The notes: generated by a model not told the origin, from the sequence alone. A stretch of DNA of 64,000 nt from an uncultured Fidelibacterota bacterium (GCA_913040915.1 CAJWHW010000003.1:1-64000), one strand, 5' to 3'. Numbered from the stretch's first letter, positions 39,044-57,386 are shown. Made by a program: numbers and translations.

Positions 39044-41377
39044 TTAATTTTTTAATATTAAACATTTTTTCACAACTTGACTATTCTGTGAATCGATACG
39101 GATGAAAACCATTCCAGAACTATTGGGAACCCCGCTCATGCTGCTCAAATTAAAATTAATTAAATTCCTACCTGGTGATAATCTTTGAAATTTTTGGAAA
39201 TATATTTCCTGTCCAAGTAGATTATATGCCTTTACTGTTGCTTCCCCACCAGGGAAATTAGTTAAATCTATTTGAAATGAACCATTTGATGGGTTTGGAT
39301 AAAGTCCACTTATTCTCATCGGATTTTTAGGTGCTTTATTAATATTCGTTTCTGTGATACCTAAGTAATCATCCATAGTAGAAAACAATGTTAAAGATTG
39401 TATTTCCCAACCACGATAATTCACAGTTTGATCAGGTAAAAAAGATAACCGTACCTTAATATTAGAAAATTCATTCAGAGACGTAGCGGATATTAAATCT
39501 GTACGAAATTCTTCCCATTGATTACCTGTCCAACTTTTATTTACTAAAACATTTGATCCTTCATCTAAAATAGATAAGGAAACATGATCATAGTCCCATT
39601 CTGTCTCAAAGCGATGATCAATGGTAACAACAAGACGGTTTGTCCCTGTTACATCAATTAAATCGGACTCCATCCACTGTAGAGTTTGTGAAGAATCGCC
39701 ATTCTCATAATAAAATTCTTCTTGAGATTTCAGAATTAGGTTCTCTGTACACCATGGCCCTTCAGAATTAGTCCAAATCCAAGAATCGCTCAATGATTGC
39801 GGATTACCATACCAATAAGGTACTGTCATTTCCATATTGCTGGTTATTGTAATATTATTATGCCAAGGCATCATTTCTCCATCCATCTTAAAGGATAGTA
39901 TGTAATTCCCTTCATAAAGAGAAAAATTATTTGGACCGGTTGAAATTTGTATCTCATCTTTTCCAAATTCATTTTCAATAAATCCAGTTATCGTATTATT
40001 GTCAGTTGTTTCATGATAAAGGTTCAGTATTAATGATCGTAAGGGGGCAGGTTCAAGATAAATATCTTCATTGGTTATACCACTATTATTGGTTACGACT
40101 GTTACTTCTTTTGGGATATATCCCTTTGCACGAATAGAAAGTGTATATGTACCAGCATCTAAAATTCTTCTGTATCTTCCAAATTCATTTGTCAATCGTG
40201 GTTTTAGAACAGAGCCTGTATGCTCTAAAATTTCTACAATTGCATTTTCTATAGGCTGGTTACTTGTTGCATCCGAAATAATTCCGGTGACCTGTGCCGC
40301 ATCAGTATAATAACCGAGGGCACGGTCCATTAAATAAACCATTGCCGGCTTGTTACGTTCTATTGTATCTTCAATTAAAGTGCTGCCTGGCTGAAGATTT
40401 GCTGTTCCGCATTCTACCAGATACTGTATACAACCTGTTTCACGATAAAACCAATCATGAAGTTTTCCATTCCTTGAGCCGCTGTATACAGATAAATAAG
40501 TACCTGTTCCATCTTCAGTCTCTATGAGCCCCGCAAAGTGATCTGCTATAGATTTCATTACGTTTAAATCTGGAGAATCTTTCGTTTCTTCCCAGCGCCA
40601 GCTGGTAAATACTTTTTCTGATAGATTACCTGAGCGTGAGCTGTGCCAAACGATTGAGAAGACAAAATTGTTTTCTAAGGCTAAGTCCCTAATAGCGATT
40701 GCTTCTCCTTCAGAAAAAGGTTCTTCACCCTTGTAATAATCATAATGTGATGCGTAATCAGAATTGTCTGGTTCTAAAAATGTATCTCCAAACACCCAAT
40801 TAAAGTTAAAATTACGGTTCAGATCCACCCCGTCTATATCGTTGCCAATCGAAGGATCATAATCGAATAATTCATTCGGATACGGACCTTCAGGACTTAA
40901 ATCTCTTTTTGTTTTTCTATAACTGACATCCAAGCCTTCATGCACGACATTTAACCCATCTGGGTTAGCAGTAGGAATAATCCAAATCTCTAAATATTGC
41001 TTAAGGATATTCATATGCGTGAATATACTATTATCAGGAAACAATAAATCATCTATCAGATCTAATACTATTTCGTTGCCCAATATTTCTTCGGCATGAA
41101 CCTGCCCAACAAATAAAACACTGGGCTCATCTTCTCTAACATCAACATTATCTGAAATTTTTACCGCCAAAATAGGTATTTGGTCATGAGTAGAGTAACC
41201 AATTGTATCTACTCGGTACCATCCATCCAATTCTTCTAATTGATCCAGTGAATCTAAATATGCATAAATTTCATCCACGGTATGATAGCGACTATCTAAT
41301 ACCTGTCCATAATTAGGATTGCCTAAATGAAATATAATGAGAATAGAACTTATATTAAAAATTGAGGATAATTTCAT
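39044..41377 (-). CDS. M14 zinc carboxypeptidase with carboxypeptidase regulatory-like domain and C-terminal sorting domain
   Basis: HAEE, NPDG, GVDLNRNF, EPFSEGE, WHS, VECG; YPNPSNG C-terminus. Confidence 0.88.
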   Translation of the reverse strand: MKLSSIFNISSILIIFHLGNPNYGQVLDSRYHTVDEIYAYLDSLDQLEELDGWYRVDTIGYSTHDQIPILAVKISDNVDVREDEPSVLFVGQVHAEEILGNEIVLDLIDDLLFPDNSIFTHMNILKQYLEIWIIPTANPDGLNVVHEGLDVSYRKTKRDLSPEGPYPNELFDYDPSIGNDIDGVDLNRNFNFNWVFGDTFLEPDNSDYASHYDYYKGEEPFSEGEAIAIRDLALENNFVFSIVWHSSRSGNLSEKVFTSWRWEETKDSPDLNVMKSIADHFAGLIETEDGTGTYLSVYSGSRNGKLHDWFYRETGCIQYLVECGTANLQPGSTLIEDTIERNKPAMVYLMDRALGYYTDAAQVTGIISDATSNQPIENAIVEILEHTGSVLKPRLTNEFGRYRRILDAGTYTLSIRAKGYIPKEVTVVTNNSGITNEDIYLEPAPLRSLILNLYHETTDNNTITGFIENEFGKDEIQISTGPNNFSLYEGNYILSFKMDGEMMPWHNNITITSNMEMTVPYWYGNPQSLSDSWIWTNSEGPWCTENLILKSQEEFYYENGDSSQTLQWMESDLIDVTGTNRLVVTIDHRFETEWDYDHVSLSILDEGSNVLVNKSWTGNQWEEFRTDLISATSLNEFSNIKVRLSFLPDQTVNYRGWEIQSLTLFSTMDDYLGITETNINKAPKNPMRISGLYPNPSNGSFQIDLTNFPGGEATVKAYNLLGQEIYFQKFQRLSPGRNLINFNLSSMSGVPNSSGMVFIRIDSQNSQVVKKCLILKN

Positions 41378-41416: not shown

Positions 41417-44400
41417 TTACTTTAAGTATGTTACCTTACCTCTATTTATATTTTTACTTGTATTGAATTCATAAAAATATATTCCACTTGTAACTAATTG
41501 TCCTGCAATATTCATACCATCCCAATAAATTCTGTAATTGCCACCAAAATCTGGTAGAATTAATTTATCTGTTACTACTCTTCCGGTAATATCATAAATC
41601 CGAAAATTAACAGCTTCCTTTTCCGGCATAAAAAATTCAAAAGCCACCTTGCCATTGAAGGGGTTAGGATAAGCTGGCTTTAAGGAAAATTCAGTAGGAA
41701 TATCACAATCAAAGCATTTTGGTTCATTGGATAATAATTCTGCCTTTGACAGAATGCGACCATAATAATTTGCCAGATCCTCCTTTCCTGAGCTTCGGTA
41801 ATCAACCCAATCCAAAAAGAATTCTTCTCCTGAATAGTGTGTGATTTGGAGATTTTGCTGTTTATGATAAGCAATACAAATAGGGACTCCATTTATATCA
41901 GTTGTCATACCCTGTCCGACTTTAAACCCAGATCCATATAAATCAACTCCATTAATTAATAATGGATCGTCATTGATATATCCCCGTCCGTCTTCCCATA
42001 TAACCATAAATTCATCACCCGTAACATTTTCAACCGTAGGCATATAATTATCAATAGAATCATTCACAACCGAAGTAAATTGAACAAATTCACTAGAAAG
42101 TGAGCCATTTTCTAAATTTAATAGTTGACCAAATATTTCAAAGTTTTGTCCATTTCTGAAATCTTCCCAAACAATTAATGCTTTTGTCTGTGTATCGTTC
42201 ATTGAAAAGGAAAAGTTTGTTTGATCATTTTCATCATCAGTGACAATAAGTCCGTTGGTTTCCCATAGTTTATTGCCATCCCAATCAACTTTTTGGGCAT
42301 AAATATCCGCAAAATTACCAATCTGATTCCATAAACAAATTATGCCTGTGCCATCATCTAGTGTTTTGACCTGCAGAGAACTAGATGCCGAAAAATTATC
42401 CGTTAAATTAATCCCACCAGGATTCCATCCTATTTCAGTATTACCGTTTTGATCGATCTTTAAATATTTAATCACTATATAGGAACCAGAAGGGTTCCAT
42501 TGCTCATTCATCCAAAATACCATGAGTTTATTATCTGGTGTAGGTATAGCTGTTATAAAGAAATCATCATTACTAGCATCCACTAGTTCCACTCCACCAC
42601 TTTCTAATATCGCATTTCCTTCGTTATCTAAATATTGAAAATAAATATTATTGTCCCATAATCTGCTCTCAGACCAAAAACATCCAACACCGCTTCCTAT
42701 AGAAACCAGTTTTGCATTTCTCATATCAGCTTCAGAAGATATTGCAACCCCTACAGAGTCCCACAAATTTTCAAATGATTCATCTAACTTATTAATTCGA
42801 AGATATTTCGGTGTAGAAGTTGCATCATATGTACCAACGAAAAAATTATTATCATCTTTAATAACAATAGGTAATGCAATTTCATCTGAAGAATTGTCAC
42901 TGTAAGAGAGTTGCTTACCATCTTGGTATAGTACAGAATTTTCAGTAATTCTTGTTCCATAGATTCTTTTTGCTGAACGATTATCTTCCCATGTAAGAAA
43001 AAAATCATTTTCGCCTTTCCGAAACCGTGATGTGTATTTTATGTCCCCATCTAAACCAACCATTGCAGTAATTCCACTATTTCCCCAAACAGTAGAACCA
43101 TTATCTATTTTTTGAATTTTGAGATCAATGCTTCCTGTCCCTTGATCTGCATAAATAATATAGAATTGATCATTAGTTGACCCTATCAAAATGGGTGAAA
43201 ATTGATACCCGTCTGAATTGGTAAGATTAAGCGGCTCAGCTGGAAATGTACCATCAGCATTGATTGTACGCACCATAATCTCAATATCAGGAAAAGTGCC
43301 ACGTTCCCATGCTACATTAAGCCCACCATTTTCATTGGAATTGAACCTTGCACTAAAATCTCGATATGCCCCGGGATCAATTTTTACACCATTACCCCAT
43401 TCACGATCACCATTTACGTTCACTTTTTGAAAATATTGATCTCCATCAACAGCATCATCTCTATAATCTGTCCATTTAACAAATACTTCGCCTAGTGAAT
43501 TTCTTTTCACTCGTGGTTTTGCCTGCAATGTTTCATCATCAGAAATTGCTTTTTCATTTGTAAATACCAAGCCGCTTTCATTCACAAATTGGTAATATAC
43601 TTTTGAGTTCGCGTCACCTCTTTTCCAAGTAACAAATGAAGTTTCTCCATTTACAAATGTAGCACGAGGCTTTGTCTCTTGATCAGTGGTATTTGCTATT
43701 GGAATACCATTTTCTGCAAAAACCGCTGTCATATCCATATTGAGGCGTTGACCATAAATATTTGCATTTTCACCTTCTCGGTAATCAGCCCAAGCAATAA
43801 ATGCCTGATTGTCTCCTGCATATTCAATGGTCTTTGCATTTTGATTTCCACCTTCAACAGCTATTGCAACGCCAACTCCGGGTGCAACTATCTCATTATC
43901 TGCAGAAACATGGGTTCCATATATATCTTCATCCACTCCGCCACGCTTATCCTGCCAGGTAACAAAGACACCACCAAGGCTATCTGTACACATATTGATA
44001 GTTATTTGATTCCCATCAACTTGAGCCAGTGCAATTCCATTTTCATCCATTAAGAGATTTCCATCTGAATCTAAATGCTGAATAAAAATATCTCCCTGTG
44101 CATCAAATCGATAATCAACCCAGGCAATAAACACACCCCCGTTACCATCTTCGATTGAAACAGGGTCTTCTTGCCTACCAGGCAGATTAGTAACGATTGC
44201 TCCAGACTCACCCCATAGCATGGACCCATCATGATTAACTTTATGTGCAAAAATGTTTCGCATGCCGTATCGTGTATCTGACCACACAAAAATTGCTTCA
44301 CCTTGATCACCAGGAGAAACAGTCCTATACCATTCAATATGTACACCCTGTCGGATGGGTGCACCATCATTCGAATCAAAACCTGTTGAATAGGTTAATG

Positions 44401-44434
44401 ATACAAACATAATTGAAAAAACTAATTTTTTCAT
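41417..44434 (-). CDS. Large secreted beta-propeller repeat protein with C-terminal FlgD/T9SS-type domain
   Basis: About 14 repeats of (F/V)xxWxDxR...IYxQ; YPNPFNG...WDG..SGIYF; RBS-supported start near 44434-44443 (ORF track 44476). Confidence 0.75.
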   Translation of the reverse strand: MKKLVFSIMFVSLTYSTGFDSNDGAPIRQGVHIEWYRTVSPGDQGEAIFVWSDTRYGMRNIFAHKVNHDGSMLWGESGAIVTNLPGRQEDPVSIEDGNGGVFIAWVDYRFDAQGDIFIQHLDSDGNLLMDENGIALAQVDGNQITINMCTDSLGGVFVTWQDKRGGVDEDIYGTHVSADNEIVAPGVGVAIAVEGGNQNAKTIEYAGDNQAFIAWADYREGENANIYGQRLNMDMTAVFAENGIPIANTTDQETKPRATFVNGETSFVTWKRGDANSKVYYQFVNESGLVFTNEKAISDDETLQAKPRVKRNSLGEVFVKWTDYRDDAVDGDQYFQKVNVNGDREWGNGVKIDPGAYRDFSARFNSNENGGLNVAWERGTFPDIEIMVRTINADGTFPAEPLNLTNSDGYQFSPILIGSTNDQFYIIYADQGTGSIDLKIQKIDNGSTVWGNSGITAMVGLDGDIKYTSRFRKGENDFFLTWEDNRSAKRIYGTRITENSVLYQDGKQLSYSDNSSDEIALPIVIKDDNNFFVGTYDATSTPKYLRINKLDESFENLWDSVGVAISSEADMRNAKLVSIGSGVGCFWSESRLWDNNIYFQYLDNEGNAILESGGVELVDASNDDFFITAIPTPDNKLMVFWMNEQWNPSGSYIVIKYLKIDQNGNTEIGWNPGGINLTDNFSASSSLQVKTLDDGTGIICLWNQIGNFADIYAQKVDWDGNKLWETNGLIVTDDENDQTNFSFSMNDTQTKALIVWEDFRNGQNFEIFGQLLNLENGSLSSEFVQFTSVVNDSIDNYMPTVENVTGDEFMVIWEDGRGYINDDPLLINGVDLYGSGFKVGQGMTTDINGVPICIAYHKQQNLQITHYSGEEFFLDWVDYRSSGKEDLANYYGRILSKAELLSNEPKCFDCDIPTEFSLKPAYPNPFNGKVAFEFFMPEKEAVNFRIYDITGRVVTDKLILPDFGGNYRIYWDGMNIAGQLVTSGIYFYEFNTSKNINRGKVTYLK

Positions 44435-44485
44435 TTTCATCATTCCTTCGTCAAATTTATGTTGTTTTATAAACAAATAATTTTA

Positions 44486-45523
44486 TTATTGATTAATTGA
44501 GAGTATTTGTAATCCTTCGCGGGAACAAACAATTAAATTTTCACCCCAGAACTCTGTTTTGTAAACATAGCCTATAGGAAATAGGCCTTTCTCAATGGGC
44601 TTATTTGGATCGGTAATATCATAAAGTGCAATCCCCTTCGATCCAAGAGACAATGCAGCAATTCCATCATTTACAGAAATATGATCTACAGTCAAATCCT
44701 GTGCAAATCTCACATGTGAATTGCTTGAAGCAGAAAAAACATTATAAGGTATATAAGCAGCTCCAACATCATCACATGAGACAAAAACCCCAGCATCTGC
44801 TAATACAACTTTCTCTGCATTCCCTTCTGTATCAACTCGACCTATGAATTCAGGATCAGCTTCAAGTGAAGCTAATTCATATAATTCCACGCCTAACTGA
44901 TCTACAGCGAGAGCAATATAATTTTCTCCATTAGAGTCTATTCCCTGAGGCTTACCTGGTGTATACAGTTCACCGGCACTCCCCTCTGGATATACCGGAT
45001 TCCAAAAAGAATAACCAAAAACTTCGTAAGGTTCATAAATACTCCACTTTAGACCATCATCATTATCTGCTGCATACATCACAAAGCGACCCGTATCTAT
45101 TGGAAAAGAAACAAATTCTCTAGTCCTTGCACTCATGATTGTATTAATAAAGCTTAAGTTGGAATCACCTACTGTATAATTAAAAATTTGCACATCTTTA
45201 TTTGTTTCAGATGAAAAGATCAGATTATTAGTAATATCAATTTCAATAAGTGAGAGATCATCAAACTCTAAAAAGGATCCCAATTCATAATACCCACTGA
45301 AATCACTCAGTTTTATTTTATCTTTTAGATTCCATATTTGTATCCCTGATTGTCCTGCAGCAATGAAAGCTGTATTGCCGTGAATGGCCACATCTCTTGA
45401 AAAGCCTGTTGTATTTAATACTTCAACTTCCGTTACAGACCACAAATCTTCTACATTAGGTTCAATACACCCAAATAATAATATACTAATAACAGCTATA
45501 AAATGTTTTCTAATATCGATCAT
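44486..45523 (-). CDS. LVIVD-repeat-like beta-propeller lipoprotein
   Basis: Lipobox LFGC; repeats AFIAAGQSGIQIWN, ALAVDQLGVELYE, GIALYDITDPNKP, GLQILSI. Confidence 0.7.
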   Translation of the reverse strand: MIDIRKHFIAVISILLFGCIEPNVEDLWSVTEVEVLNTTGFSRDVAIHGNTAFIAAGQSGIQIWNLKDKIKLSDFSGYYELGSFLEFDDLSLIEIDITNNLIFSSETNKDVQIFNYTVGDSNLSFINTIMSARTREFVSFPIDTGRFVMYAADNDDGLKWSIYEPYEVFGYSFWNPVYPEGSAGELYTPGKPQGIDSNGENYIALAVDQLGVELYELASLEADPEFIGRVDTEGNAEKVVLADAGVFVSCDDVGAAYIPYNVFSASSNSHVRFAQDLTVDHISVNDGIAALSLGSKGIALYDITDPNKPIEKGLFPIGYVYKTEFWGENLIVCSREGLQILSINQ

Positions 45524-46541
45524 ATACCATATCCCATTCTATTTTGCACCAAAATTGAATTTGATTAAAACTTTTTAAATCTTTTACCCATTCATATGCT
45601 GAATCAGTTGTGCGAATTCTATATCTTCCTGTAAACAAAACTGATACTGCTTCAAATATCTCTTTTTTCACCCATACATCATATTTAGAATCTATGTGAT
45701 CTCTTCCTGCATGGAGCGGGTCATCAGGGTCTTCAGCTCCATACTTTCTATATTCTTCACGTATTGAAAAACCAATTTCATCAACAATTGGAATATTTCT
45801 ATGTATTTTAACTGGCATATACCATTCCATATTGTTATAGGAACGATTAAAACTACTTGGTCGCTCAGTTGATAAATGAGATGTACTTCTTGCATGTCCA
45901 CGGTTGATTTGAAAAGATATAGTTGCTATCCTTTTAATCTTATAATTCACCCTTCCTTTGATATAATGAATATCTAAATCAAACTCCGTAAATGGTTTAT
46001 CATAATATCGTTGAAGATAGCCTGTACTTAGGTTGATCCAGGACTCTCTTAATATCTTTTGTGTGATTGTAATACTTTGATTTCTATCGGTAAAATAGCA
46101 AGGAGCTAGCAAATCATTGCTAATATCACGGTTAATATAATGTCTCAGATAAAAACTATTTAAGTGTCTAACAGAATATTTTATATTTTTATAACTTCCC
46201 CATTTATAAATCGCATCCAGTCCACCACTCCAATATTTTCTTTCAGTGTTATTTTGATAATCAGACCAACTGTAAAAACCATTTATGGAAAAATCTTTTC
46301 TTCTGGAATGCCAAACAGACTTTTTTCCTGATAATCGTAATTTATAAACAAAACTGTCAAAAGTTGATGCACCACCCATGAGAGAATTATCAAGTGCTGC
46401 TTCACCAAATTCATATGTAGAAAATCGTAAAACATTATTATCATACCCACCAGTAATCCCGATGGTATACTCAATAGGTGTTTTACCCAGTAAGTATGAT
46501 GAAATAAAAATAATGTAAAATATATATTTTTGAGAATTCAT
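45510..46541 (-). CDS. Probable outer-membrane beta-barrel protein
   Basis: Signal peptide; first strand ending GGYDNNV; alternating aromatic/hydrophobic strands, Tyr/Trp/Arg-rich. Confidence 0.6.
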   Translation of the reverse strand: MNSQKYIFYIIFISSYLLGKTPIEYTIGITGGYDNNVLRFSTYEFGEAALDNSLMGGASTFDSFVYKLRLSGKKSVWHSRRKDFSINGFYSWSDYQNNTERKYWSGGLDAIYKWGSYKNIKYSVRHLNSFYLRHYINRDISNDLLAPCYFTDRNQSITITQKILRESWINLSTGYLQRYYDKPFTEFDLDIHYIKGRVNYKIKRIATISFQINRGHARSTSHLSTERPSSFNRSYNNMEWYMPVKIHRNIPIVDEIGFSIREEYRKYGAEDPDDPLHAGRDHIDSKYDVWVKKEIFEAVSVLFTGRYRIRTTDSAYEWVKDLKSFNQIQFWCKIEWDMVYDRY

Positions 46542-47419
46542 TAATATAAAATAAAACGAGTAAGGACCACTTTATCCTTATCTGCAACTTCAATTGAATA
46601 AGTGTGTCTCCCTTTTGGTACAGGTATCTCACAAGATCGCCATTTACCCGGAACTTTATCATCCCTTCCTAAAATTTGTGATGCAGATGAGCGCTCAGAA
46701 TTAAAATAATAAGTACCAATGACTTTTTTACCTTCCTTCACTCTAATGCGATATGATTCTTCCTGGCCCATAGAATCAGAAAACTCTAATCGATTCAAAA
46801 TTCTTAGATTATTTTTCCCCCTTGCTTCTATTTGCAAAGGTAATTCCGATGTACACTCAAAATATTTAATCTCTTTTTTATTCGAGATTAGACTGACAGC
46901 ATTTTGATGAACCATTGGAGTAAGCACTTTTTTGTTTTTTCCTATTGATTCAAAATTTTTTGCCAGAACCCGAATTAAAACTGGGTATTTTAACTTTTCA
47001 TTCGATATCAATTCTATAGTTTGGGTTCCTTTTTCTAGGTTAATGAAATAGTTACCAGAATGTGTGTATTTATGTTTTGGGTGTTGTATAGATTTAATGG
47101 ATTTTTGAACTTTGTATCTATGATTTACTTGAATAGTATCTACTCCATTTAATACTATTTTATAATTAAAGGGATGACTTTTATTCTTCTTTTTTATCAC
47201 AGGATATCGTGAAATGAATTCTAAACGTGTAGGGCCTTCTATCGTATAAATAAGTCCTTCATTATTGATGGGATAGTAGAGTCTTCTTTTGGAATTAATA
47301 ATTAAAATCTCTTTATTTTCCCCATTTTTACTGGGCTTCAAAAGTTTTGCTTGCAGTGGCACCGCCATGGTTACAAAAAGAATAAATAGAATTGATTTAG
47401 AGTAGACTGTCAGGTTCAT
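46541..47419 (-). CDS. Highly basic exported protein with two internally repeated beta-rich domains
   Basis: Signal peptide ending PLQA; Lys/Arg/His-rich; two similar halves. Confidence 0.65.
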   Translation of the reverse strand: MNLTVYSKSILFILFVTMAVPLQAKLLKPSKNGENKEILIINSKRRLYYPINNEGLIYTIEGPTRLEFISRYPVIKKKNKSHPFNYKIVLNGVDTIQVNHRYKVQKSIKSIQHPKHKYTHSGNYFINLEKGTQTIELISNEKLKYPVLIRVLAKNFESIGKNKKVLTPMVHQNAVSLISNKKEIKYFECTSELPLQIEARGKNNLRILNRLEFSDSMGQEESYRIRVKEGKKVIGTYYFNSERSSASQILGRDDKVPGKWRSCEIPVPKGRHTYSIEVADKDKVVLTRFILY

Positions 47420-48548
47420 GTTGTATTAAATGCTCTTTAATTTTTGTTTTACTTTGGAGACCAACCATAAACACACATCCTCCTACAACAAATAAGCAAA
47501 TTGCTGCAACAATTAAATTATAGCGTTCATCAGCATAAAGGCTTCCCGTACCAATATCCGGAATAGGGATTGGTGCAAAGGGCATGTTAAACTGTTCTAT
47601 GAGCGGTCTGATATTGAGAATGTGAATTCCAGGAATATCCATTTTTATCATTTTGGAAAATACTCCTTCAATTCCGCCAGGACGAATAATATCGGTCACA
47701 TTTTTACGGTTTACGACTCCAGGTGGTAATAATTTTAAATTAAAACTAGTTCCTAAGCTGGCAACACCTCCACCAACATTGATTACAGCTTTATAATTCA
47801 TTTTTGGTAATATAGAAGAATATGTCATCATACGATTTTGAATATTATCAGCTAATTTTTCCATTTTGATAAGTGGCAGTTGATGATTTGCTATATTTTC
47901 GGTTATTAGTTTCCTCCCTGATGGAGATAACAAACGTCCCATATCATTTCTTCCACCAATTGAAGCTGCAACGCTTTTCGCTGGAATAAGACTATTGTTA
48001 AAGAGAATTGATTCCATATCTAGCCAGGTGAAATCAACCTGATTGGCACCCCATTGAGAAGCACCAACACTTGTAATGGTAATTGGATATACCCCTAACG
48101 ATTTACATGCCGTTAAAACAGCAATATTCGCTCCTGGCATAGAACCTGTCATTAGAATTGCAACCGTATCACTTTCTTTTAGATCAACCTGATACATTAA
48201 ATCAACAATAGCAGCTGAAAAATTAGGATCCAATGTTGTCAATTTCGCATCCAGATCTCCTTCATCTGTTGTAATTAAACTAAATGGACTCCCCACCAGT
48301 CCTGTCTCATTTGGATCATTTTCTATATCAATAAAAATGCCCTGTTCCATTCTACTTTCTTTCAGCAAATTCATTGCTTTTTCCATTAGACGAGCTGCTT
48401 TCACCTTATGTTCATAGGAAGGAGATACATCAATGGTTTTTGTATTCAAAGCAATTAGAAAACAAAGCAAGGATAGAATGGATAAACTCACCAGAGTCGA
48501 TGTCTTTTGAATAGCAGGAATAAAGGGTTGTTTTTTATAATTATTCAA
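47397..48548 (-). CDS. pgsW: Poly-gamma-glutamate system protein PgsW
   Basis: DPNETGLVG, ITT..G.L.AK.T..DPNF, GSMPGANIA, SVGASQWGAN, NVGGG; follows pgsBC; TTG start at 48548 with GGAG RBS (ORF track 48563). Confidence 0.85.
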   Translation of the reverse strand: MNNYKKQPFIPAIQKTSTLVSLSILSLLCFLIALNTKTIDVSPSYEHKVKAARLMEKAMNLLKESRMEQGIFIDIENDPNETGLVGSPFSLITTDEGDLDAKLTTLDPNFSAAIVDLMYQVDLKESDTVAILMTGSMPGANIAVLTACKSLGVYPITITSVGASQWGANQVDFTWLDMESILFNNSLIPAKSVAASIGGRNDMGRLLSPSGRKLITENIANHQLPLIKMEKLADNIQNRMMTYSSILPKMNYKAVINVGGGVASLGTSFNLKLLPPGVVNRKNVTDIIRPGGIEGVFSKMIKMDIPGIHILNIRPLIEQFNMPFAPIPIPDIGTGSLYADERYNLIVAAICLFVVGGCVFMVGLQSKTKIKEHLIQHEPDSLL

Positions 48549-48984
48549 ACAGTACTCCACCAAATAATAACATCACAGCCAGTTTTACCAAAACAGCAGT
48601 CAGAATTACGACTGCAACTGTACGAATAACTCCTTGCCGGTCCATCCAATTTGCAATTAGGCCAGGAATTATATTCCCAATTACAGCGACTGAACCTAAT
48701 TCTTCAGGCATAAAGATAAAATTTCGAGATATATAACCAAAAAAGAATCCAAGAATTAAGGCCAATACAATTCTACGTTTGCCATATAAAAACATAAATT
48801 TCCCCATTACCTGGATAATTGCCCAGACTAATATTGCAACTCCGAACGTGACTAAAACCTGGATCGGATGGTGAAGATAAAGGGAAATATAACCAGGAAC
48901 AATAATCCCTCCCGCCGTGACTCCTAGAGTCTCTGACAATACTAAACTTAATACAATTCCTAGTCCTATGCTGATCTCAGCCAT
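48541..48984 (-). CDS. pgsC: Poly-gamma-glutamate biosynthesis protein PgsC/CapC
   Basis: G.TAGGIIVPGY.SL, LYGKRR, IGNIIPGLIANWMDRQG. Confidence 0.93.
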   Translation of the reverse strand: MAEISIGLGIVLSLVLSETLGVTAGGIIVPGYISLYLHHPIQVLVTFGVAILVWAIIQVMGKFMFLYGKRRIVLALILGFFFGYISRNFIFMPEELGSVAVIGNIIPGLIANWMDRQGVIRTVAVVILTAVLVKLAVMLLFGGVLFE

Positions 48985-50158
48985 GGTATCGATATTCTGC
49001 TATTTTATTTAGTAGTTCTTGTCCAGCACCGACCTGATTTCCAATTGCATAAATCAATGTATCATGAGGCAAATCAATTAATGTATCTACAACAGTATCA
49101 AAATTATCATTCAATCCAATTATTTGTACTTTGGTACCTGGGGAATGGTGCAATAATCTTTGGACAGTATTTTCCACCTTATCACCTCTGATAATGAAAT
49201 GGTCAGGTTTTATCTCTTCAAGTGTCAATTCAATCATTTGGCGCGTACGAATAGGACGGTCGTCACGGGAATTAAAAAAAACACAGGTGCCTCCTTCAGC
49301 GGGATAACGGTCAATAATAAATTTCCATATCTGCAAAGTTGAAACGGGGTCATTAGCAGCCATACCATTAATAAATTGAATTCGTTTATCGTCCTTATCA
49401 AGGTACCATGCTATCAGAGCTCCTAAATCTGGCTTAACCTTGTGCATACCAGATAAAGCAATATCTCTGTCAACACCAACTTTAGTACAGACATCCAAGG
49501 CTACTGCCACGTTCGCTGGATGTTCCATATAGCTGAAATTGTCTAGATCTTTTAGCGTAATTTGTGTTTCATCTGACTGAATAAATTCTGTGTTATTAGC
49601 TGCGGCAACATTTTTTAGTATTTCAGGTTTTTGCTCTTCTCCTGTTATAAGTGTTCCGCCTACTGGAATAGTATTGCATAGAGAGTATGCTACATCATCT
49701 TCAGTCGGTCCCATTTCATCTAGATGGTCTGGACGTACATTAGTAATTACAGCTATATGTGATTGAACCATTTGATGCTCAGCTATCCACTGGTATTGAG
49801 GCTGTACTGCCATGCATTCCATCACAACTGCATCAGGTTTTTCATCTGCGAAATAGCTTAATAGTCTTGTTTGTTCACCTATGGACGGTAGACGCAAGCG
49901 ATGTATGATTCTGTCCTTTCCTTCAGCGTCAATAACTCTAGGTGCCGTGCCTGTAGTTTTTGCAAAGGTTCGGATACCTGCTTCACGAAGTCCCGCTGCT
50001 ATTAACCTTGTTACACTCGATTTTCCCCGGGTTCCATTAACATGGATTCTTAATGGGATAGCGGCCAAAGACCGCATATGATATTGAAATTCAAGAATTC
50101 CCGCGATGCATAAAGCTAATGCCAATGCACCGAGTACAATCAAGGGAGTGATGGACAT
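48977..50158 (-). CDS. pgsB: Poly-gamma-glutamate synthase PgsB/CapB (Mur-ligase fold)
   Basis: IHVNGTRGKSSVTRLIAAGL, AKTTGT, ECMAVQP, TNVRPDHLDEMGP, AANDP. Confidence 0.95.
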   Translation of the reverse strand: MSITPLIVLGALALALCIAGILEFQYHMRSLAAIPLRIHVNGTRGKSSVTRLIAAGLREAGIRTFAKTTGTAPRVIDAEGKDRIIHRLRLPSIGEQTRLLSYFADEKPDAVVMECMAVQPQYQWIAEHQMVQSHIAVITNVRPDHLDEMGPTEDDVAYSLCNTIPVGGTLITGEEQKPEILKNVAAANNTEFIQSDETQITLKDLDNFSYMEHPANVAVALDVCTKVGVDRDIALSGMHKVKPDLGALIAWYLDKDDKRIQFINGMAANDPVSTLQIWKFIIDRYPAEGGTCVFFNSRDDRPIRTRQMIELTLEEIKPDHFIIRGDKVENTVQRLLHHSPGTKVQIIGLNDNFDTVVDTLIDLPHDTLIYAIGNQVGAGQELLNKIAEYRYHG

Positions 50159-50183: not shown

Positions 50184-53100
50184 TTACTGGTACCCCAATA
50201 CCATCCGTATCAACGCAACCATGTCCATTACATTCACTAAACCATCTCCGTTGATATCACCAAAATATTCATTCACTAAGCCTTCATTACCAAGATTGTA
50301 GTCAACTAATAAGAGCACATCTTGAACATTAACTTTTCCATCATAATTCAAATCTCCAGCAAGACGTATTGTACTCCCACGAGTTGTAATTAATAATGCT
50401 TTACCATCACCTAATTCCATAGCTGCTGGATGATACTCATCATTGAATGTATATTGTAATCCAACAGTCATTGTTTGATCTTCAATCCCAACAGTACAAT
50501 AATTACCATGAATCTGGTCCCAACTATAAGCACCATAAGATGTATTATTAAAGTCCATATATTGTATAAGAATATCACCATCACCTGTTGGTGTAGAATA
50601 GTATTCAGGATCGAATAAAACTGCTTGGAAGGTTTCAGTCGAATTATTCTGATATGTTCTGACTCTTGACCATTGGATATAAAACCTTTTTTGATCCTCA
50701 TCGTACCAGGTATAAACGCGACCATTATTGGTTAATTTTAAATCATCCCAAAAGACAGCAATCATTCCACCGGGACCACCAACACCAGGAATTTGATAAT
50801 TGCGAAAAGATTCTAAAGTAGACTCGCCCATAGCAATCCACCCGTTGGAACAGATACTTACCTGATCATATTCCTGACCATAAAATTTAAATGTGAAGGG
50901 CAAATTTATTGTCTCTACATCATCTTGGTTATTCCCACCATCCGTTAGGGATGATAAATGAGTACCACTTCCTCCATATCGTCCATCAATTTCAATCCAA
51001 TTATATGTAGGAGATATAGTATATCCAATATCACCACTGTCATATATGTAATATCCATGGGCATCCGGACCAACCGGATCTAATACTGTTGGTTCACCGA
51101 TCTGCACTTCAACAATAGAGTTTGACGTATACCCTTGTTCCGTTTCTATATTAACAATAAAATGGACAATCGCTCCTGGTATTGTTTGTGCTAAAGCTCG
51201 TACCTGAAAATAATCATTACCATTGAGTGAAGAGCCACCAATGGGTACGGTTGTCCATGTGCCGAATGGATCCAAGATTTCTATAAATGGGGATGCACAT
51301 GTAATTGTCCCCGTCACAGCGATTGCATTTGTCGTTCCAGAATTTCCTAATTCAATTTTAATAAAGGAAGTTTCACTAGGTGTCAAAATATCAATTGCAG
51401 ATCCAATCACATCTATATCAATGGCATTTATATTATTTCCAGAAACATTTACATTCAATGCACCAGTAGTTGTGTTTCCTTCGATATCATAAAAATTTAT
51501 TAAAAGATCTAAGTTCGAACCTTCCTGTAAACCTTCTTCTAATGTAATTATAAATGGTGTTGGCGCATTCACAGTATTACCTACTGCAATGGATCCATAA
51601 TTAACTGTGGCAGATTCTATCATCACGCTACTAGATCCACTTGTAATAACTCCATTAATATTACCAGCATCATCACTACCAAAGTTTGTGGCGCTCACAA
51701 ATATTTCTAGTGTTTCACCACCATTAGCAATACCATCTCCATTTCCACTAGATGCACCATAATTATCATCATCAATAGTAAGCGTTGTTTGTAAAAGATT
51801 GACAGCAACTCCTGGATCATAAATCTGGAAAGAACTTTGATAAGGATAGTGATTTTTCTTGGTTACCGTAATTAATACTTCCCCTGTTTCTGATGATGTA
51901 ATTGGTAGACGAATAAATCCATTATCATCAGTATAACCTGATTCAAAAATTTCTCCATCCTTAAGTATTGTAACCCACGCATCTTCTAAAGCGCCATTAC
52001 CCTTGGTAACAGTAACATCTATAAAATTCGTACCCTTGGCTAAAGAATATAGATGTTCAACCGTTATTTGATCTGGGTAACTAGTCCACATGGGCAATGA
52101 TGACTCCCCCATCAGATTATTCCAATGTGTAAAAATATGACAATAGTTATCTGGATTAGTTGGATAATTTTTATACAGTTGCATTTTCCCATACATTAAG
52201 GCTGCACCTACTGTCTCAATACCTTCAATCAATGCCCCATAATAAAAGCCCATATCCACCATGTTATTAAACATTGTATGGGTCCCCAATGTAGCCGTTC
52301 CAATACATGCGACAGATCCTTTTGGATTTGATGATGTACCTGCTCGTATGAAAGATTCAATCAGAGCTTCTTCACTTCCAAACGAACCGGTTCCACAGGT
52401 AATAACTGTTGCCACTGGTAACATGAATCCGTTATTTGTATTATTAACATTTCCAGAAGTAAAACCACTGACACCATAATAGCCACGATAATTAAAAAAG
52501 GAAACACCTTCTGATAGTCCGGCCTGCATTTGATTGGCAAAAGACCCGCTGTAAACAGTGTTAACTTCTTCAAAACCTGCTACATCTAGCATTTCATGGA
52601 TCATTTCATTGCTGATCACACAAGAAACACCAGAAGTAGTTGGATCTCCAACTAAGCAGGCTCGTTGAAACCAATTGTCTCCCAAGTAAGGATTAGATTC
52701 ATAATTAAGTGTTTTACTTATTATTGTAGCCAGTTCAGAACTTGTATCAAATGATAGGCGGCCTAAAAACACTTCCGGAAATTGATCATTCCCTTCCAAG
52801 GTTGAGTATGGATGATCCCCATCACCATTATAATATGACCATGAATCTGACCATGTAGGAATGTCGTAGGTTCCTTCTGCATCACCTACAATGGTAACAA
52901 ATACAGGTGGGTTATCCCAGTCTTCATAGGCATCTTGAATATATGCCTTCAAATTATTTCTATTATTTACAATGGCAGAAGTGTTTATATAATTCACTTC
53001 ATACCCAACACGATTTTTCCATTCCATTAATTCTTCAACATAATTCATCATTGAAGTACTTAGATTATTAGGTAACACGTAGAGGATTGCTGGACGCTGG

Positions 53101-53765
53101 TAGTCAACATTTCTACTTATTGTTGAATAATTTACTACCAAGGATTTATATAGATCTTCAAATGCACGTGATTTTTTTTGAGGGATAAATGGCTCAGTCA
53201 TCATGCCATTTTCTACAAGTTCAACTTCTACACTATGGATGATTGACAACTCTTTTGTAACAGGGTTGTATTGAAACGGCGTGACTGAGACTTGGACCAT
53301 GGTCAAATCACGAAAAATTATTGGTTCAGATACCGTTGCTATTGATGACGGATAAATACTGTCTCTTTCATAAGAGCGGCCTTTAGTAATCTTTCCTGTC
53401 AAATTAGGGTCCCAACTCTCAAATGGACAAACATCAATATTGTTTAATGTTTCAGTTTCTTCAATATTAACCTGTACTGAATAAGATTTTCCTGGTTCTA
53501 CAGCATAAAATGTTGAAACTGTAGGCAAATATGGTTCCCCTGGATTAGCTATAGATCCTGCATTTAGCATTTCTGGTTTTATAAAAACGGATCCATCTTG
53601 CTCAATTTGTTTTAATTCATATCCGGGCATCTCATAACGAATTTTCTTGCCTTGCAATGATGAAATATCATTAAAACCATCATAGACCACTGGTGCTGGG
53701 TTTTCTGCAGCATAGCCAAAGGTTACCGCTACCATGATTACAAGTTGAATGCGAATTTTTGTCAT
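50184..53765 (-). CDS. Peptidase C25 family protein with propeptide-like N-terminus and C-terminal dockerin type I domain
   Basis: GEPYLP...PFQYNP propeptide; IVGD, PEVFLGRL, FNYRGYYG, ITCGTG, NLMGE; twin GDLNYDGKVNVQD / GDINGDGLVNVMD. Confidence 0.85.
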   Translation of the reverse strand: MTKIRIQLVIMVAVTFGYAAENPAPVVYDGFNDISSLQGKKIRYEMPGYELKQIEQDGSVFIKPEMLNAGSIANPGEPYLPTVSTFYAVEPGKSYSVQVNIEETETLNNIDVCPFESWDPNLTGKITKGRSYERDSIYPSSIATVSEPIIFRDLTMVQVSVTPFQYNPVTKELSIIHSVEVELVENGMMTEPFIPQKKSRAFEDLYKSLVVNYSTISRNVDYQRPAILYVLPNNLSTSMMNYVEELMEWKNRVGYEVNYINTSAIVNNRNNLKAYIQDAYEDWDNPPVFVTIVGDAEGTYDIPTWSDSWSYYNGDGDHPYSTLEGNDQFPEVFLGRLSFDTSSELATIISKTLNYESNPYLGDNWFQRACLVGDPTTSGVSCVISNEMIHEMLDVAGFEEVNTVYSGSFANQMQAGLSEGVSFFNYRGYYGVSGFTSGNVNNTNNGFMLPVATVITCGTGSFGSEEALIESFIRAGTSSNPKGSVACIGTATLGTHTMFNNMVDMGFYYGALIEGIETVGAALMYGKMQLYKNYPTNPDNYCHIFTHWNNLMGESSLPMWTSYPDQITVEHLYSLAKGTNFIDVTVTKGNGALEDAWVTILKDGEIFESGYTDDNGFIRLPITSSETGEVLITVTKKNHYPYQSSFQIYDPGVAVNLLQTTLTIDDDNYGASSGNGDGIANGGETLEIFVSATNFGSDDAGNINGVITSGSSSVMIESATVNYGSIAVGNTVNAPTPFIITLEEGLQEGSNLDLLINFYDIEGNTTTGALNVNVSGNNINAIDIDVIGSAIDILTPSETSFIKIELGNSGTTNAIAVTGTITCASPFIEILDPFGTWTTVPIGGSSLNGNDYFQVRALAQTIPGAIVHFIVNIETEQGYTSNSIVEVQIGEPTVLDPVGPDAHGYYIYDSGDIGYTISPTYNWIEIDGRYGGSGTHLSSLTDGGNNQDDVETINLPFTFKFYGQEYDQVSICSNGWIAMGESTLESFRNYQIPGVGGPGGMIAVFWDDLKLTNNGRVYTWYDEDQKRFYIQWSRVRTYQNNSTETFQAVLFDPEYYSTPTGDGDILIQYMDFNNTSYGAYSWDQIHGNYCTVGIEDQTMTVGLQYTFNDEYHPAAMELGDGKALLITTRGSTIRLAGDLNYDGKVNVQDVLLLVDYNLGNEGLVNEYFGDINGDGLVNVMDMVALIRMVLGYQ

Positions 53766-53773
53766 AAGAGCCT

Positions 53774-54418
53774 CTAATATATGATCAATAAGTGAAAAAA
53801 TCCCGGGTAATAAATACTGCCCACATAAACACCAATACCTGATACGGCTAAAAATGGTGCCATTGGCAATGCCCGATCTTTGTCAAAGTCTTTCACCAAT
53901 GAAACGGCTAACCATGTAAATAAACTCAATAGTGAAGCAGAAAATAGCGTTATTGCCATTCTCATAGGGCCTAACCATGCTCCAAGTACAATTCCCATTT
54001 GAATATCACCATATCCCATCCCTTGTCTTTTAGTAACCATCTTCAGAAGTAACATTATTATCAGAGGAATAACTGCACCAACGAAAATTCCCCAAAGCGC
54101 TGCAGTAATATAGGTTAACTTAAGTAAAACATTTACAATTATACCGATGACACCCAGAAGGATAAAAATCAATGGGATTTGAAATGTGTAAAAATCTATA
54201 ACTCCGATCCCCACAAGCAATGTGGAAATAAATGCAAAAATAATCGCTTCACTTAGGGGCAGGCTTAGGAAAGCCCATATCCAGATTAAACTACACATTA
54301 ATTCTAGAAGAATATTTTTTGGTTTAATGTGATACCCATCAATACTTAGCCAATTAATGGTTTGTTTCAATCCAAACCCCGATAGGCATCCACAAATTGT
54401 TGTTAAAAGTAATTCCAC
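53774..54418 (-). CDS. pilD: Prepilin peptidase (A24), short form
   Basis: Catalytic Asp motifs IDFYTFQIP and GMGYGD; LPMAPFL. Confidence 0.8.
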   Translation of the reverse strand: MELLLTTICGCLSGFGLKQTINWLSIDGYHIKPKNILLELMCSLIWIWAFLSLPLSEAIIFAFISTLLVGIGVIDFYTFQIPLIFILLGVIGIIVNVLLKLTYITAALWGIFVGAVIPLIIMLLLKMVTKRQGMGYGDIQMGIVLGAWLGPMRMAITLFSASLLSLFTWLAVSLVKDFDKDRALPMAPFLAVSGIGVYVGSIYYPGFFHLLIIY

Positions 54419-54420
54419 TT

Positions 54421-55668
54421 CTACAGGCCGGATTGCAGCGCAGCACCCATGTGAAAAACAGGTAAATATGTCAGGACAACCATCAACGCTAAAATAGCAC
54501 CCACCATCAGGATTAATAATGGCTCAATTAAGGTGGTCATTCTCTCTACCAACGCATCTACTTGCTTCTGGTAGTAATCAGCGGCGCGATCTAGCAAATC
54601 ATCTAATTCACCGGTCTCTTCACCAGTGGACGCTAATTGTAACAGTATTGATGGGAATACTTCTGTACGACGGAGAGCTGTTGAAATATTATATCCATCT
54701 CGTATGTAATCAGATGCATCTTCAACAGCTTTTTCATAGACACGGTTATCAACAACTTTTTTCAATAATGCTGTGGATTCTAAAACAGGTACACCAGCAC
54801 CAATTAAAATTCCAAAAGTCTTACAAAATTTATTTAGTATAGATTGTTCTAATAATACTCCAAATACGGGGACTTTTAGTTTAAATGAGTCAATTACAAA
54901 TCCACCACGTTGAGTTTTAGAAATCAACCATATTATAAAAACAACAATGAATCCCATAAAGATCATAAATCCAGCATTAGCCTGCAACCAGGCACTTAAA
55001 TCAATCATTTTACGTGTGGCCAGAGGTAGTGACGCTCCTAGAGTTGCATATACTTCAGAAAATTTAGGAATGATAAGTAACATCATGACAAGAAGCATTA
55101 CGCCAAGAAAAACAACCATAAAGATTGGATAGCTCATGGCTGATTTTACCTTTCGTCGTGTATCATCTAGACTTTCTAGATAGGATGATAATTGTTCTAG
55201 TATTTCATTTAGGTTACCACTTACTTCACCAGCTTTCACCATGGCGACAAACAAAGTATTGAATACACCGGGATGTCTTGATAAAGATTCGGAAAGATTA
55301 AGACCCTTTCTGATATTTTCACTGACAGTGGTTAGAATTCGTTTAAACTTTTTGTGTTTTTCTTCAGCTCCAAGACTATGTATAGCTCTTTCAAGTGTCA
55401 AACCAGCAGCAAACATTGTTGCTAACTGGCGTGTGAAAAATACAATATTTGAAAGTGGAATTCTATTCTTAGCTCTTTCAATTGAAAGTTGTATCTCATC
55501 TATAAATGGTCCTAAAAAATCAAATGAATCATCCACTTCCTTCAATGTGATGACCATTTGGCCATTTGCCGATAATTTTTGAATGGCTAAGTCCAGAGAG
55601 TCTGCACGTATTTCCCCTTCCTTACGCTGTCCTTCTGAATTTTTAGTTAAATATGAAAAAATAGCCAC
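54421..55668 (-). CDS. pilC: Type IV pilus/T2SS inner-membrane platform protein PilC/GspF
   Basis: FTRQLATM, AGEVSGNL, AMSYP, GEETGELD, LIEP, YLPVF. Confidence 0.93.
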   Translation of the reverse strand: MAIFSYLTKNSEGQRKEGEIRADSLDLAIQKLSANGQMVITLKEVDDSFDFLGPFIDEIQLSIERAKNRIPLSNIVFFTRQLATMFAAGLTLERAIHSLGAEEKHKKFKRILTTVSENIRKGLNLSESLSRHPGVFNTLFVAMVKAGEVSGNLNEILEQLSSYLESLDDTRRKVKSAMSYPIFMVVFLGVMLLVMMLLIIPKFSEVYATLGASLPLATRKMIDLSAWLQANAGFMIFMGFIVVFIIWLISKTQRGGFVIDSFKLKVPVFGVLLEQSILNKFCKTFGILIGAGVPVLESTALLKKVVDNRVYEKAVEDASDYIRDGYNISTALRRTEVFPSILLQLASTGEETGELDDLLDRAADYYQKQVDALVERMTTLIEPLLILMVGAILALMVVLTYLPVFHMGAALQSGL

Positions 55669-57386
55669 TATAAATCTTCAACTGTTGATCTCATAACTTC
55701 TTCTATAGATGTTGTACCATCCAAAATACGTTCTAACCCAGCTTCCCTCAGTGTTACCATTCCATTATCTAAGGCAGCCTGTCTTATATCATCTTCATTA
55801 GCATTTTCAAAAACAAGTTTTCTGAGTTCTCTTGCCATTGGTATCATTTCAAAAATTGCTAATCGTCCCTTGTAGCCCGTATTACGGCATTCTGTACACC
55901 CTTTTCCATGGTAAAGCGGCCCTTTTATACGGCTTGATTCTAAGCCAACCAATGCTAATTCTTCATTTGATGGTTTATATTCTTCTTTGCATGATTTACA
56001 TATACGCCTTACCAAACGCTGGGCCATAACCAGATTTAAACAAGAACCAACCAGAAACGGTGCAATTCCAATATCAAGCAAACGTGTTAATGTTCCCGGA
56101 GCATCATTTGCGTGAACCGTTGAAAAGACTAAGTGACCAGTCAGTGCAAACTTTACCGCAATATCCGCTGTTTCACCATCACGGATTTCGCCAATAAGCA
56201 ACACATCAGGATCTTGACGCAAGATTGAACGCAGCGTTGAACCAAATGTAAGTCCAATATCTTCAAATACCTGTACCTGGTTCACTCCATCTAACTGGTA
56301 TTCCACTGGATCTTCAACAGTAGTTATATTAGTACGTTCACTTTTGATCTCTTTTAAAGCAGCGTATAGGCTTGTCGATTTACCGGAGCCTGTTGGGCCG
56401 GATACCACAACCATACCGTAAGGCTGATTAATTACCTTTTTAAAAACCCCAAGATTTCTTTTAGGAAAACCTAATGAAGTTAAATTGAAATCAAATCCAG
56501 TTTTATCTAAAAGACGCATTACAATCTTTTCCCCATAAACGGTTGGCAGTATTGAGACACGAACGTCGAGCTCTTTTCCGGGAGACTTTATTGAAAATCT
56601 ACCATCCTGGGGTAATCTTTTCTCTGCAATATTTAATTTTGACAGAATCTTAATTCGGGTTACTAAACCACTTAAGGATGTGACTGGTGGTGTCATAATC
56701 GTCTGGAGTACACCGTCAATGCGAATTCGTACATAAAGCTGTTTTTCCATAGGTTCAATATGCACATCTGTCGCACGCTCTTTAATGGATTCCTGTAAAA
56801 TCAAATTAACTAACTTTACAATAGGAGCATCTTCTTCTGAAGCTTTGTCCGGAGATAGATTAACTTCTTCTTTAGAGCCTTCATCACCAGAGATAACTGT
56901 AATATTGTCTAATACATCACTCACTTCTGCAGTTTTTTGGATCTCTCCATAAACTCTATCGAGCGATTTTTCCATCATGTCATGACCACAGACAATAATA
57001 TCAGGATTAAGGTTTGTTAATCGCTTGATGGAATCAATAGCCACTAAATCTTCAGGATCTTCCATGGCAACGGTAATTGCTGAATCATTTTTGTTTACTG
57101 CCAATACTCTGTTCGTTCTGGCAAAATCTTCAGGTATCATGGCAGCAATATTGGCATCGGCTTCCAGTAAAATAAAGTTGTCTGCTTTGCGGTATCCTAA
57201 CTGTTGAGCAAAAGCCGTTACAAAATCATCTTCTTCAATGATACCCATCTCAATAAGAGTAACGCCTATTTTTTCATTAGTTGATTTTTGTTGTGCTAAC
57301 CCTTCATTTAATTGGCCTTCTGTGACTTTTTCATTATGAAGAAGTATCTCACCTAATTTTGAAAATTGTGGGTTAAAATCATTCAT
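55668..57386 (-). CDS. pilB: Type IV pilus assembly ATPase PilB/GspE
   Basis: MshEN-like N-terminus, RLPQDGR, GPTGSGKS, TVEDPVEY, LRQDPD, CKSC/CTEC zinc motif. Confidence 0.93.
   Translation of the reverse strand: MNDFNPQFSKLGEILLHNEKVTEGQLNEGLAQQKSTNEKIGVTLIEMGIIEEDDFVTAFAQQLGYRKADNFILLEADANIAAMIPEDFARTNRVLAVNKNDSAITVAMEDPEDLVAIDSIKRLTNLNPDIIVCGHDMMEKSLDRVYGEIQKTAEVSDVLDNITVISGDEGSKEEVNLSPDKASEEDAPIVKLVNLILQESIKERATDVHIEPMEKQLYVRIRIDGVLQTIMTPPVTSLSGLVTRIKILSKLNIAEKRLPQDGRFSIKSPGKELDVRVSILPTVYGEKIVMRLLDKTGFDFNLTSLGFPKRNLGVFKKVINQPYGMVVVSGPTGSGKSTSLYAALKEIKSERTNITTVEDPVEYQLDGVNQVQVFEDIGLTFGSTLRSILRQDPDVLLIGEIRDGETADIAVKFALTGHLVFSTVHANDAPGTLTRLLDIGIAPFLVGSCLNLVMAQRLVRRICKSCKEEYKPSNEELALVGLESSRIKGPLYHGKGCTECRNTGYKGRLAIFEMIPMARELRKLVFENANEDDIRQAALDNGMVTLREAGLERILDGTTSIEEVMRSTVEDL

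Follow-up and report, generated by a model that had tools for sequence, protein, structure and literature searches.

A poly-gamma-glutamate synthase operon of diderm Marinimicrobia (Fidelibacterota) that includes a predicted 14-stranded barrel, a candidate outer-membrane conduit for the polymer

Operons for the synthesis of poly-gamma-glutamate (PGA) in Bacillus have the composition PgsBCA(E) or CapBCA(DE). Among synthase-dependent systems for polymer secretion, AlgE/AlgK, PgaA, BcsC and PelB/PelC are the closest in design to the locus described here; PgaA, BcsC and PelB have tetratricopeptide repeats (TPR) fused ahead of the barrel, and the pore of AlgE, which serves an anionic polymer, has an electropositive lining. 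A literature search of titles and the opening parts of abstracts found no description of an outer-membrane route for PGA or of the barrel considered below. We analyzed a 64,000-nt stretch of DNA from an uncultured Fidelibacterota bacterium (GCA_913040915.1 CAJWHW010000003.1:1-64000; hereafter, the window), in which genes for a PGA synthase (pgsB, pgsC and a TIGR04332 gene, "pgsW") are followed by genes for a basic secreted protein (p292, 292 aa), a predicted beta-barrel (p343, 343 aa) and a lipoprotein (p345, 345 aa). This stretch is best explained as the core of an operon with which diderm Marinimicrobia/Fidelibacterota synthesize and export PGA. The reading we favor, at a probability of roughly 0.55, is that p292, p343 and p345 make up the outer portion of the system and that p343 is the passage across the outer membrane.

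Nine open reading frames (ORFs) form a single run on the minus strand of the window, from 53765 to 39044, the largest gap being 39 nt (Table 1). PgsB, PgsC and the TIGR04332 protein alike exceed their curated NCBIfam cut-offs, and their genes are adjacent and overlapping. The junctions pgsB/pgsC, pgsC/pgsW, pgsW/p292 and p292/p343 overlap by 8, 23 (8 if translation starts at a TTG at codon 6), 23 and 1 nt (TAATG), respectively, which bears out the overlap of these five genes described in a first-pass annotation of the window; a further overlap of 14 nt between p343 and p345 makes the coupled run one gene longer than had been noted there. The TIGR04332 protein has hydrophobic stretches at its N- and C-terminal ends, as judged from the alignment, and its gene occupies the place of PgsA/CapA in Bacillus operons. 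The name pgsW, which was not found in a polyglutamate sense among the titles and abstracts listed, serves here as a label only.

Like the Bacillus operons, the locus is led by PgsB and PgsC equivalogs and has accessory polymer-processing enzymes nearby. It differs in that the third subunit is of the TIGR04332 type instead of PgsA/CapA, that three envelope genes, those of p292, p343 and p345, are added, and that the host has an outer membrane. Relatives of the window proteins are labelled Candidatus Marinimicrobia, Neomarinimicrobiota or Fidelibacterota, and the genome of the window encodes BamA (446.6 bits; cut-off, 297). The organism is therefore a diderm, and PGA would need to cross its outer membrane.

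An AlphaFold2 model of p343, built on a 26-row alignment, is a closed 14-stranded beta-barrel (mean pLDDT, 82.5; pTM, 0.79), in agreement with the barrel that the first-pass annotation had proposed for this protein. A helix at residues 2-18 corresponds to the hydrophobic N-terminal segment, strand 1 begins at residue 23, and the model contains no separate plug domain. If the N-terminus is placed in the periplasm, turns of 2-8 residues lie on that side of the barrel and loops of 6-30 residues on the other, and the C-terminus is aromatic (...VYDRY); as modeled, this is the usual layout of an outer-membrane barrel, and p343 is presumed to reside in that membrane. The motif GGYDNNV lies at residues 31-37, with G32, Y33, D34 and N36 invariant in 26 relatives, and the protein has 48 K/R versus 39 D/E, with 54 aromatic residues in the 323-residue mature part. 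The motif and the abundance of basic and aromatic residues had thus been described correctly, and the N-terminal helix is signal-like, where a signal peptide had been called; the strands had been called amphipathic, and several of them are just weakly so. No Pfam (E <= 0.01) or NCBIfam model matched p343, and its family profile retrieved nothing among PDB sequences at E <= 1. Comparison of 41 members of the barrel family with Pfam at E <= 5 gave single chance-level matches only, with neither BBP2 nor PorP_SprF among them. The BBP2-type resemblance proposed for the motif was therefore not supported.

The best match of the p343 model in an all-against-all structural search was OmpG (Z 21.6; root-mean-square deviation [rmsd], 3.4 A; 244 of 252 residues), and CymA was close to it (Z 21.2; rmsd, 3.8 A; 290 residues), at sequence identities of 7-8%. 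Both are monomeric 14-strand sugar-entry channels. p343 shares with them the number of strands and an alignment spanning nearly the whole chains, but it has no family match, it is encoded with a synthase, of which OmpG and CymA are not operon partners, and its long loops are its most conserved part. Chains of the Bacteroidota BAM complex scored Z of about 17 and FadL-type barrels Z 15-16, whereas the polymer-export porins PgaA, PelBC and BcsC scored Z 14.9, 13.7 and 13.1, respectively; AlgE was at Foldseek rank 28 and not among the 50 best rows of the structural search. AlgE and PgaA, to which the barrel had been likened, are thus not its nearest folds, and the model places p343 in a 14-strand class rather than that of the known polymer-export porins. 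In arrangement, p343 does resemble AlgE/AlgK, PgaA, BcsC and PelB/PelC: the gene for a predicted barrel shares an operon with a polymer synthase of the inner membrane, and within the barrel family the periplasmic partner is a protein of its own or an N-terminal fusion. The differences are the 14 strands, the lack of sequence relation, a polyamide as the polymer and a usual partner that is not a TPR protein.

Linkage of the barrel to the synthase is tight within the phylum. A pattern search for the barrel gave 78 Marinimicrobia loci, and the following counts cover the loci in which the contig leaves room: p292 adjoins the barrel in 76 of 76 (the two genes overlap in L056), pgsW lies upstream in 66 of 66 (with a 1.6-kb gap in L031), pgsB is present in 63 of 63, and p345 follows the barrel in 64 of 64. 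Among 151 genomes sampled from the phylum, TIGR04332 was found in 46, the barrel family in 41 and both in 40; in the 41st barrel genome (G048), pgsW is cut by a contig end, so that the barrel lies beside the TIGR04332 gene in all 41. Six TIGR04332 genomes had no barrel match; in one of them (G064), the contig is short and TIGR04332 itself matches only in part.

When family members of other phyla were used as seeds, a barrel search gave 67 loci, assigned by record label to Eiseniibacteriota (14), Fibrobacterota (12), Krumholzibacteriota (12), Gemmatimonadota (2), Latescibacterota (1), Verrucomicrobiota (1) or unnamed (25). Genes of the pgs type were present in 56 of the 67, and the colinear order pgsW-(p292)-barrel was seen in 47; two contigs end just upstream of p292, and in seven loci the barrel comes directly after a gene similar to C25 (gingipain-family) peptidases and lies 4-6 kb upstream of pgsBCW. 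The fetched stretch contained no pgs gene in 11 loci, and all 10 of the genomes tested among these (L228 was left out) carry TIGR04332 over the cut-off elsewhere. Across the phylum sample and the loci outside the phylum, no genome was found that has the barrel without TIGR04332. The expected tie of the barrel to a TIGR04332-type synthase in diderm phyla was thereby supported (41 of 41 in the phylum sample, 56 of 67 outside), and the opposite pattern, homologs residing mostly in genomes without pgsBC, was clearly not observed. When a FastTree phylogeny of 150 PgsW rows was scored for the label "barrel in locus", two changes were needed versus about 50 after shuffling, while barrel identity fell to about 20% across relatives. 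Since relatives share labels, the tree shows one module-keeping lineage, not repeated independent association; it indicates that one synthase lineage kept the module while the barrel diverged.

The partner protein p292 matched no Pfam, NCBIfam or PDB sequence (PDB profile search, E <= 1), and an Atlas search returned its own family alone. Its N-terminus is signal-like, and its net charge is +25 (+19 to +27 in 23 relatives), making it the sole basic secreted protein of the cluster, in which the others range from -30 to -91. It probably consists of two tandem domains; the p292 hidden Markov model matches twice in tandem in the homologs of L150 and L160. Many barrel ORFs outside the phylum have a signal peptide, an N-terminal domain of about 150 aa (motifs GPG.L.GY.R, GVPG, DDRPG.PSGG.KF and LYY.GP.QP) and a Lys-rich linker ahead of the barrel, and those of L223 and L224 have two such domains each. 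Residues 26-150 of p292 are matched by a profile built from 15 such domains, and the order of the motifs agrees. In L204, TPR repeats are fused ahead of the barrel (TPR_19, 1e-22), the layout of PgaA, BcsC and PelB; there was no TPR in p292 or p343 of the window, and the N-terminal domain of most relatives is of a non-TPR kind. The additions lie on the periplasmic side of the barrel and, more than any other indirect evidence here, suggest that p292-type domains act at it. A complex prediction for p292 and the barrel scored 0.02 against a mark of 0.32 and counts neither for nor against binding.

It was also noticed that the TPR-barrel ORF (L204:6053-8011) has about 300 TPR residues before the barrel, is preceded by a C25-like gene and has pgsB about 6 kb downstream. 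In nine loci with Eisenbacteria or Gemmatimonadetes labels (L205, L208, L214, L215, L220, L221, L209, L212 and L217), the barrel is preceded by no more than an N-terminal linker rich in Lys and Ser, and its gene follows or neighbors a C25-like gene, not p292; L212 and L160 are two contigs of one genome, with p292 beside pgsW on one and the barrel on the other. In an 851-aa frame (L162:2271-4826), the barrel is joined to a p292-like part and an extra domain. The frame contains a signal-peptide-like segment in its interior and could stem from a fusion, two genes, a lost stop codon or an assembly error; its reading as a clean natural fusion was rejected, and it was not relied on. One p292 relative (P0194) is labelled "Euryarchaeota archaeon" and one Atlas cluster of p292 Methanobacteriota; these are probably mis-binned marine contigs, not archaeal genes.

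The lining of the p343 lumen was estimated from strand parity, and the assignment is rough because several strands are weakly amphipathic. By this estimate, 20 K/R and 12 D/E are among 98 lumen-facing residues, and 8 K/R and 5 D/E face the lipid. R306 and R310 of strand 13 are kept in a Fibrobacteraceae relative (L156) in the cross-phylum alignment. Bulk net charge of the barrel is +3 to +17 in Marinimicrobia and -10 to +18 in distant relatives. Six residues invariant across phyla (N36, S41, R133, D188, D274 and K323, window numbering) are all in long loops, which suggests that the loops pack into a conserved cap or constriction.

We propose the following working model. PgsB and PgsC would polymerize glutamate at the inner membrane, with the TIGR04332 protein replacing PgsA as a third, periplasm-facing subunit. 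The basic p292 would receive or guide the polyanionic chain in the periplasm and dock on the barrel, the chain would reach the cell surface through or at p343, and p345 together with surface C25-like and M14 peptidases may hold, trim or attach the polymer. We infer the p292-barrel contact, the passage of PGA through the barrel and all enzymatic roles from these data. A more elaborate version, which we put forward only tentatively and rate below even odds, is a trans-envelope polyamide machine of the FCB group: a PgsB-PgsC-TIGR04332 synthase, p292 as adaptor, a 14-strand channel belonging to a new family, a lipoprotein with a propeller fold and an enzyme of the gingipain family that would process or attach the polymer as CapD does in Bacillus anthracis.

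The remaining genes of the cluster are conserved to different extents. The C25-like gene is present in the cluster across phyla, mostly upstream of pgsB; in one branch of the phylum (L084:1-11456, L085:240-8127 and L147), it has moved downstream of p345, still within the cluster. The C25-like protein of the window had no Pfam match to a sorting domain of the type IX secretion system (T9SS). The Fibrobacteraceae counterpart ends in a FlgD_ig-like domain, and the part of p1019 that contains its sorting domain is matched by C-terminal regions of counterparts from other phyla. By tblastn, a p345 homolog follows the barrel in 18 of the 67 loci outside the phylum, and PF08309 (LVIVD) occurs in 13-26% of the members of p345 Atlas clusters, which is a lead only. 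Both p1019 and the M14 peptidase gene are conserved in Marinimicrobia loci; outside the phylum, just the C-terminal domain of p1019 matches, and the M14 peptidase had no match in the 67 loci. The M14 enzyme is possibly one that trims the polymer. Directly upstream of the run, on the same strand (53774-57386), are genes for a prepilin peptidase (Peptidase_A24), an F-type platform protein of the type II secretion system (T2SS) and an E-type ATPase of T2SS/type IV pili (T4P) with an MshEN domain.

Table 1. Positions in the window, strand and supporting evidence for the nine genes of the PGA cluster
Gene or product	Position	Strand	Evidence
C25 (gingipain-family) peptidase-like, C-terminal dockerin domain	50184..53765	-	Peptidase_C25 1.2e-44, Propeptide_C25 2.9e-26, Dockerin_1 1.2e-06
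pgsB, poly-gamma-glutamate synthase ligase subunit, 393 aa	48977..50158	-	TIGR04012 E 4.4e-124, 414 bits (cut-off 222.7); Mur_ligase_M
pgsC, membrane subunit, 147 aa	48541..48984	-	TIGR04011 116.7 bits (cut-off 96.45); PF14102 CapC 4e-32
"pgsW", TIGR04332 "poly-gamma-glutamate system protein", 388 aa	47397..48563	-	1.3e-88, 297 bits (cut-off 100)
p292, secreted strongly basic protein of unnamed family; proposed periplasmic partner of the barrel	46541..47419	-	Charge, synteny
p343, predicted 14-stranded outer-membrane beta-barrel of unnamed family; candidate PGA conduit	45510..46541	-	AlphaFold2 model
p345, 345-aa lipoprotein, possibly LVIVD-type beta-propeller	44486..45523	-	LFGC lipobox read from sequence
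p1019, 1019-aa protein with T9SS C-terminal sorting domain	41417..44476	-	Por_Secre_tail 6.7e-07 / TIGR04183
M14 zinc carboxypeptidase with T9SS sorting domain	39044..41377	-	Peptidase_M14 2.2e-34, Por_Secre_tail 5.5e-09

TIGR04332 operons of another type do without the barrel. A TIGR04332 search, seeded with the divergent barrel-less type and ranked by likeness to it, gave 80 loci with labels including Bacteroidota, Ignavibacteriota, Zixiibacteriota and Thermodesulfobacteriota; nine of them have p292 and/or barrel homologs directly after pgsW, and the single Bacillota-labelled locus (L153) has neither. A search for PgsW homologs returned close Marinimicrobia relatives only among the matches listed and is uninformative on other phyla. 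Where the window has a C25-like peptidase, the barrel-less loci have a gamma-glutamyltranspeptidase upstream instead (PF01019, 1.5e-134 in L103), and the C25-like enzyme might be a counterpart of the CapD/gamma-glutamyltranspeptidase type of polymer-processing enzyme. In Bacteroidales-labelled loci (L103:3652-13806; also L089, L097, L098, L102, L104 and L106), the order is gamma-glutamyltranspeptidase, pgsB, pgsC, pgsW, a SusC-like TonB-dependent receptor, a SusD-like lipoprotein and an Asp/Glu racemase-like gene. A SusCD pair is unusual in a polymer-synthesis operon and may represent a different outer-membrane solution for the same polymer.

Several observations weigh against p343 as the outer-membrane passage for PGA. 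In the barrel-less-type search, 71 of the 80 TIGR04332 loci had neither p292 nor barrel at E <= 0.01, and the other five barrel-less genomes of the phylum sample lack both and carry a divergent operon, with a TIGR04332 protein of 349-369 aa that is 25-31% identical to that of the window and, in G032, G072 and G109, downstream ORFs that match a T9SS sorting-domain region. The module is thus not a general requirement of diderm PGA systems. Records labelled Eisenbacteria (Eiseniibacteriota) have the barrel beside a C25-like gene, not pgsW, and every module-bearing record is, by its title, a metagenome-assembled genome or a single-cell assembly. Known polymer-export porins have 16-18 strands, and the 14-strand relatives that are known serve uptake or diffusion. 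A channel for a polyanion would be expected to be cationic, a character that is weak in the p343 model (lumen estimate, +8), and bulk net charge of the barrels outside the phylum spans -21 to +19 and is therefore not conserved; the cationic lumen that the first-pass annotation had predicted is weakly supported by the parity estimate for p343 and was rejected as a trait defining the family. The conserved loops could belong to a gated channel but equally to a closed barrel. Net charge of p292-like proteins outside the phylum ranges from -9 to +27, the internal repeat of p292 is weak (the halves of Marinimicrobia p292 align at hhalign E 0.12), and the relation of the 150-aa domain to p292 is statistically weak as well (hhalign E 0.0026; probability, 12%). 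The layouts with C25 next to the barrel, the unconserved charge, the loop-centered conservation and the diderm TIGR04332 systems without barrel all caution against an overly firm claim.

Three other functions for p343 were weighed against these data. It might be an accessory or anchoring barrel for T9SS cargo (the C25-like protein, p1019 and the M14 peptidase), similar to PorP/SprF or PorV, and stand in a PGA cluster only because that surface enzyme does. PorV is a FadL-type barrel, the 14-strand barrels of that type match p343 at the Z scores given above, and p343 resembles PorV and PorP/SprF in barrel size and in being encoded next to genes for T9SS cargo in bacteria of the FCB group, to which all phyla carrying the barrel belong by record label. 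The cluster does include proteins with T9SS sorting domains. A C25-like gene directly precedes the barrel in the seven loci with distant pgsBCW, and of the 11 loci that lack pgs genes, 6 have one nearby. We nevertheless consider this function unlikely: neither p343 nor its 41 relatives (E <= 5) matched PorP_SprF or another T9SS family, the pgsW-p292-barrel layout with overlaps dominates inside the phylum (66 of 66) as well as outside (47 of 67), the N-terminal additions to the barrel are p292-like or TPR instead of T9SS parts, and the C25-like protein of the window ends in a dockerin domain with no sorting-domain match. FadL-type barrels have an N-terminal hatch domain inside the barrel, which p343, with strand 1 from residue 23 in the model and no FadL-family match, does not have, and the occurrence of the p343 family, surveyed together with that of TIGR04332, follows TIGR04332. 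A whole-genome search for PF11751 gave no match, but its control gave none either, so that it says little.

Uptake is the function suggested by the nearest folds, OmpG and CymA being solute-entry channels, and p343 might then admit glutamate or gamma-glutamyl oligomers that surface peptidases free from PGA, either to recycle the cell's own polymer or to use that of others as food. Peptidases flank the cluster, and the Bacteroidales loci of the other TIGR04332 type contain the SusC/SusD-like pair, which normally imports. That p343 is translationally coupled to the synthase genes and not to the peptidases, that the barrel is strictly tied to genomes able to make the polymer and that the cluster has no conserved inner-membrane importer make this function improbable. 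There is likewise little to recommend a non-conducting anchor or scaffold, which would tether the p292/PgsW assembly or the finished polymer while PGA exits otherwise or stays in the periplasm. Conserved residues in loops able to fill the lumen, the unconserved barrel charge and the diderm TIGR04332 systems that manage without a barrel would suit it, but the best fold matches are open channels, the model has no separate plug domain before strand 1, and anchoring would not require a 14-strand barrel.

The barrel p343, its proposed basic partner p292 and the lipoprotein p345 represent three unnamed families that stay with one synthase lineage in at least six phyla by record label. They are concrete candidates for PGA export, and the question of PGA release becomes testable with a set of five or six genes. 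If the proposed role of p343 is true, the module would provide the first outer-membrane route to be defined for PGA and a protein-polymer counterpart of the secretion of alginate, poly-N-acetylglucosamine and cellulose. The abundant ocean SAR406/Marinimicrobia may then coat themselves with, or shed, an anionic polyamide, and PGA shed or displayed by SAR406 would bear on marine dissolved organic nitrogen and particle formation.

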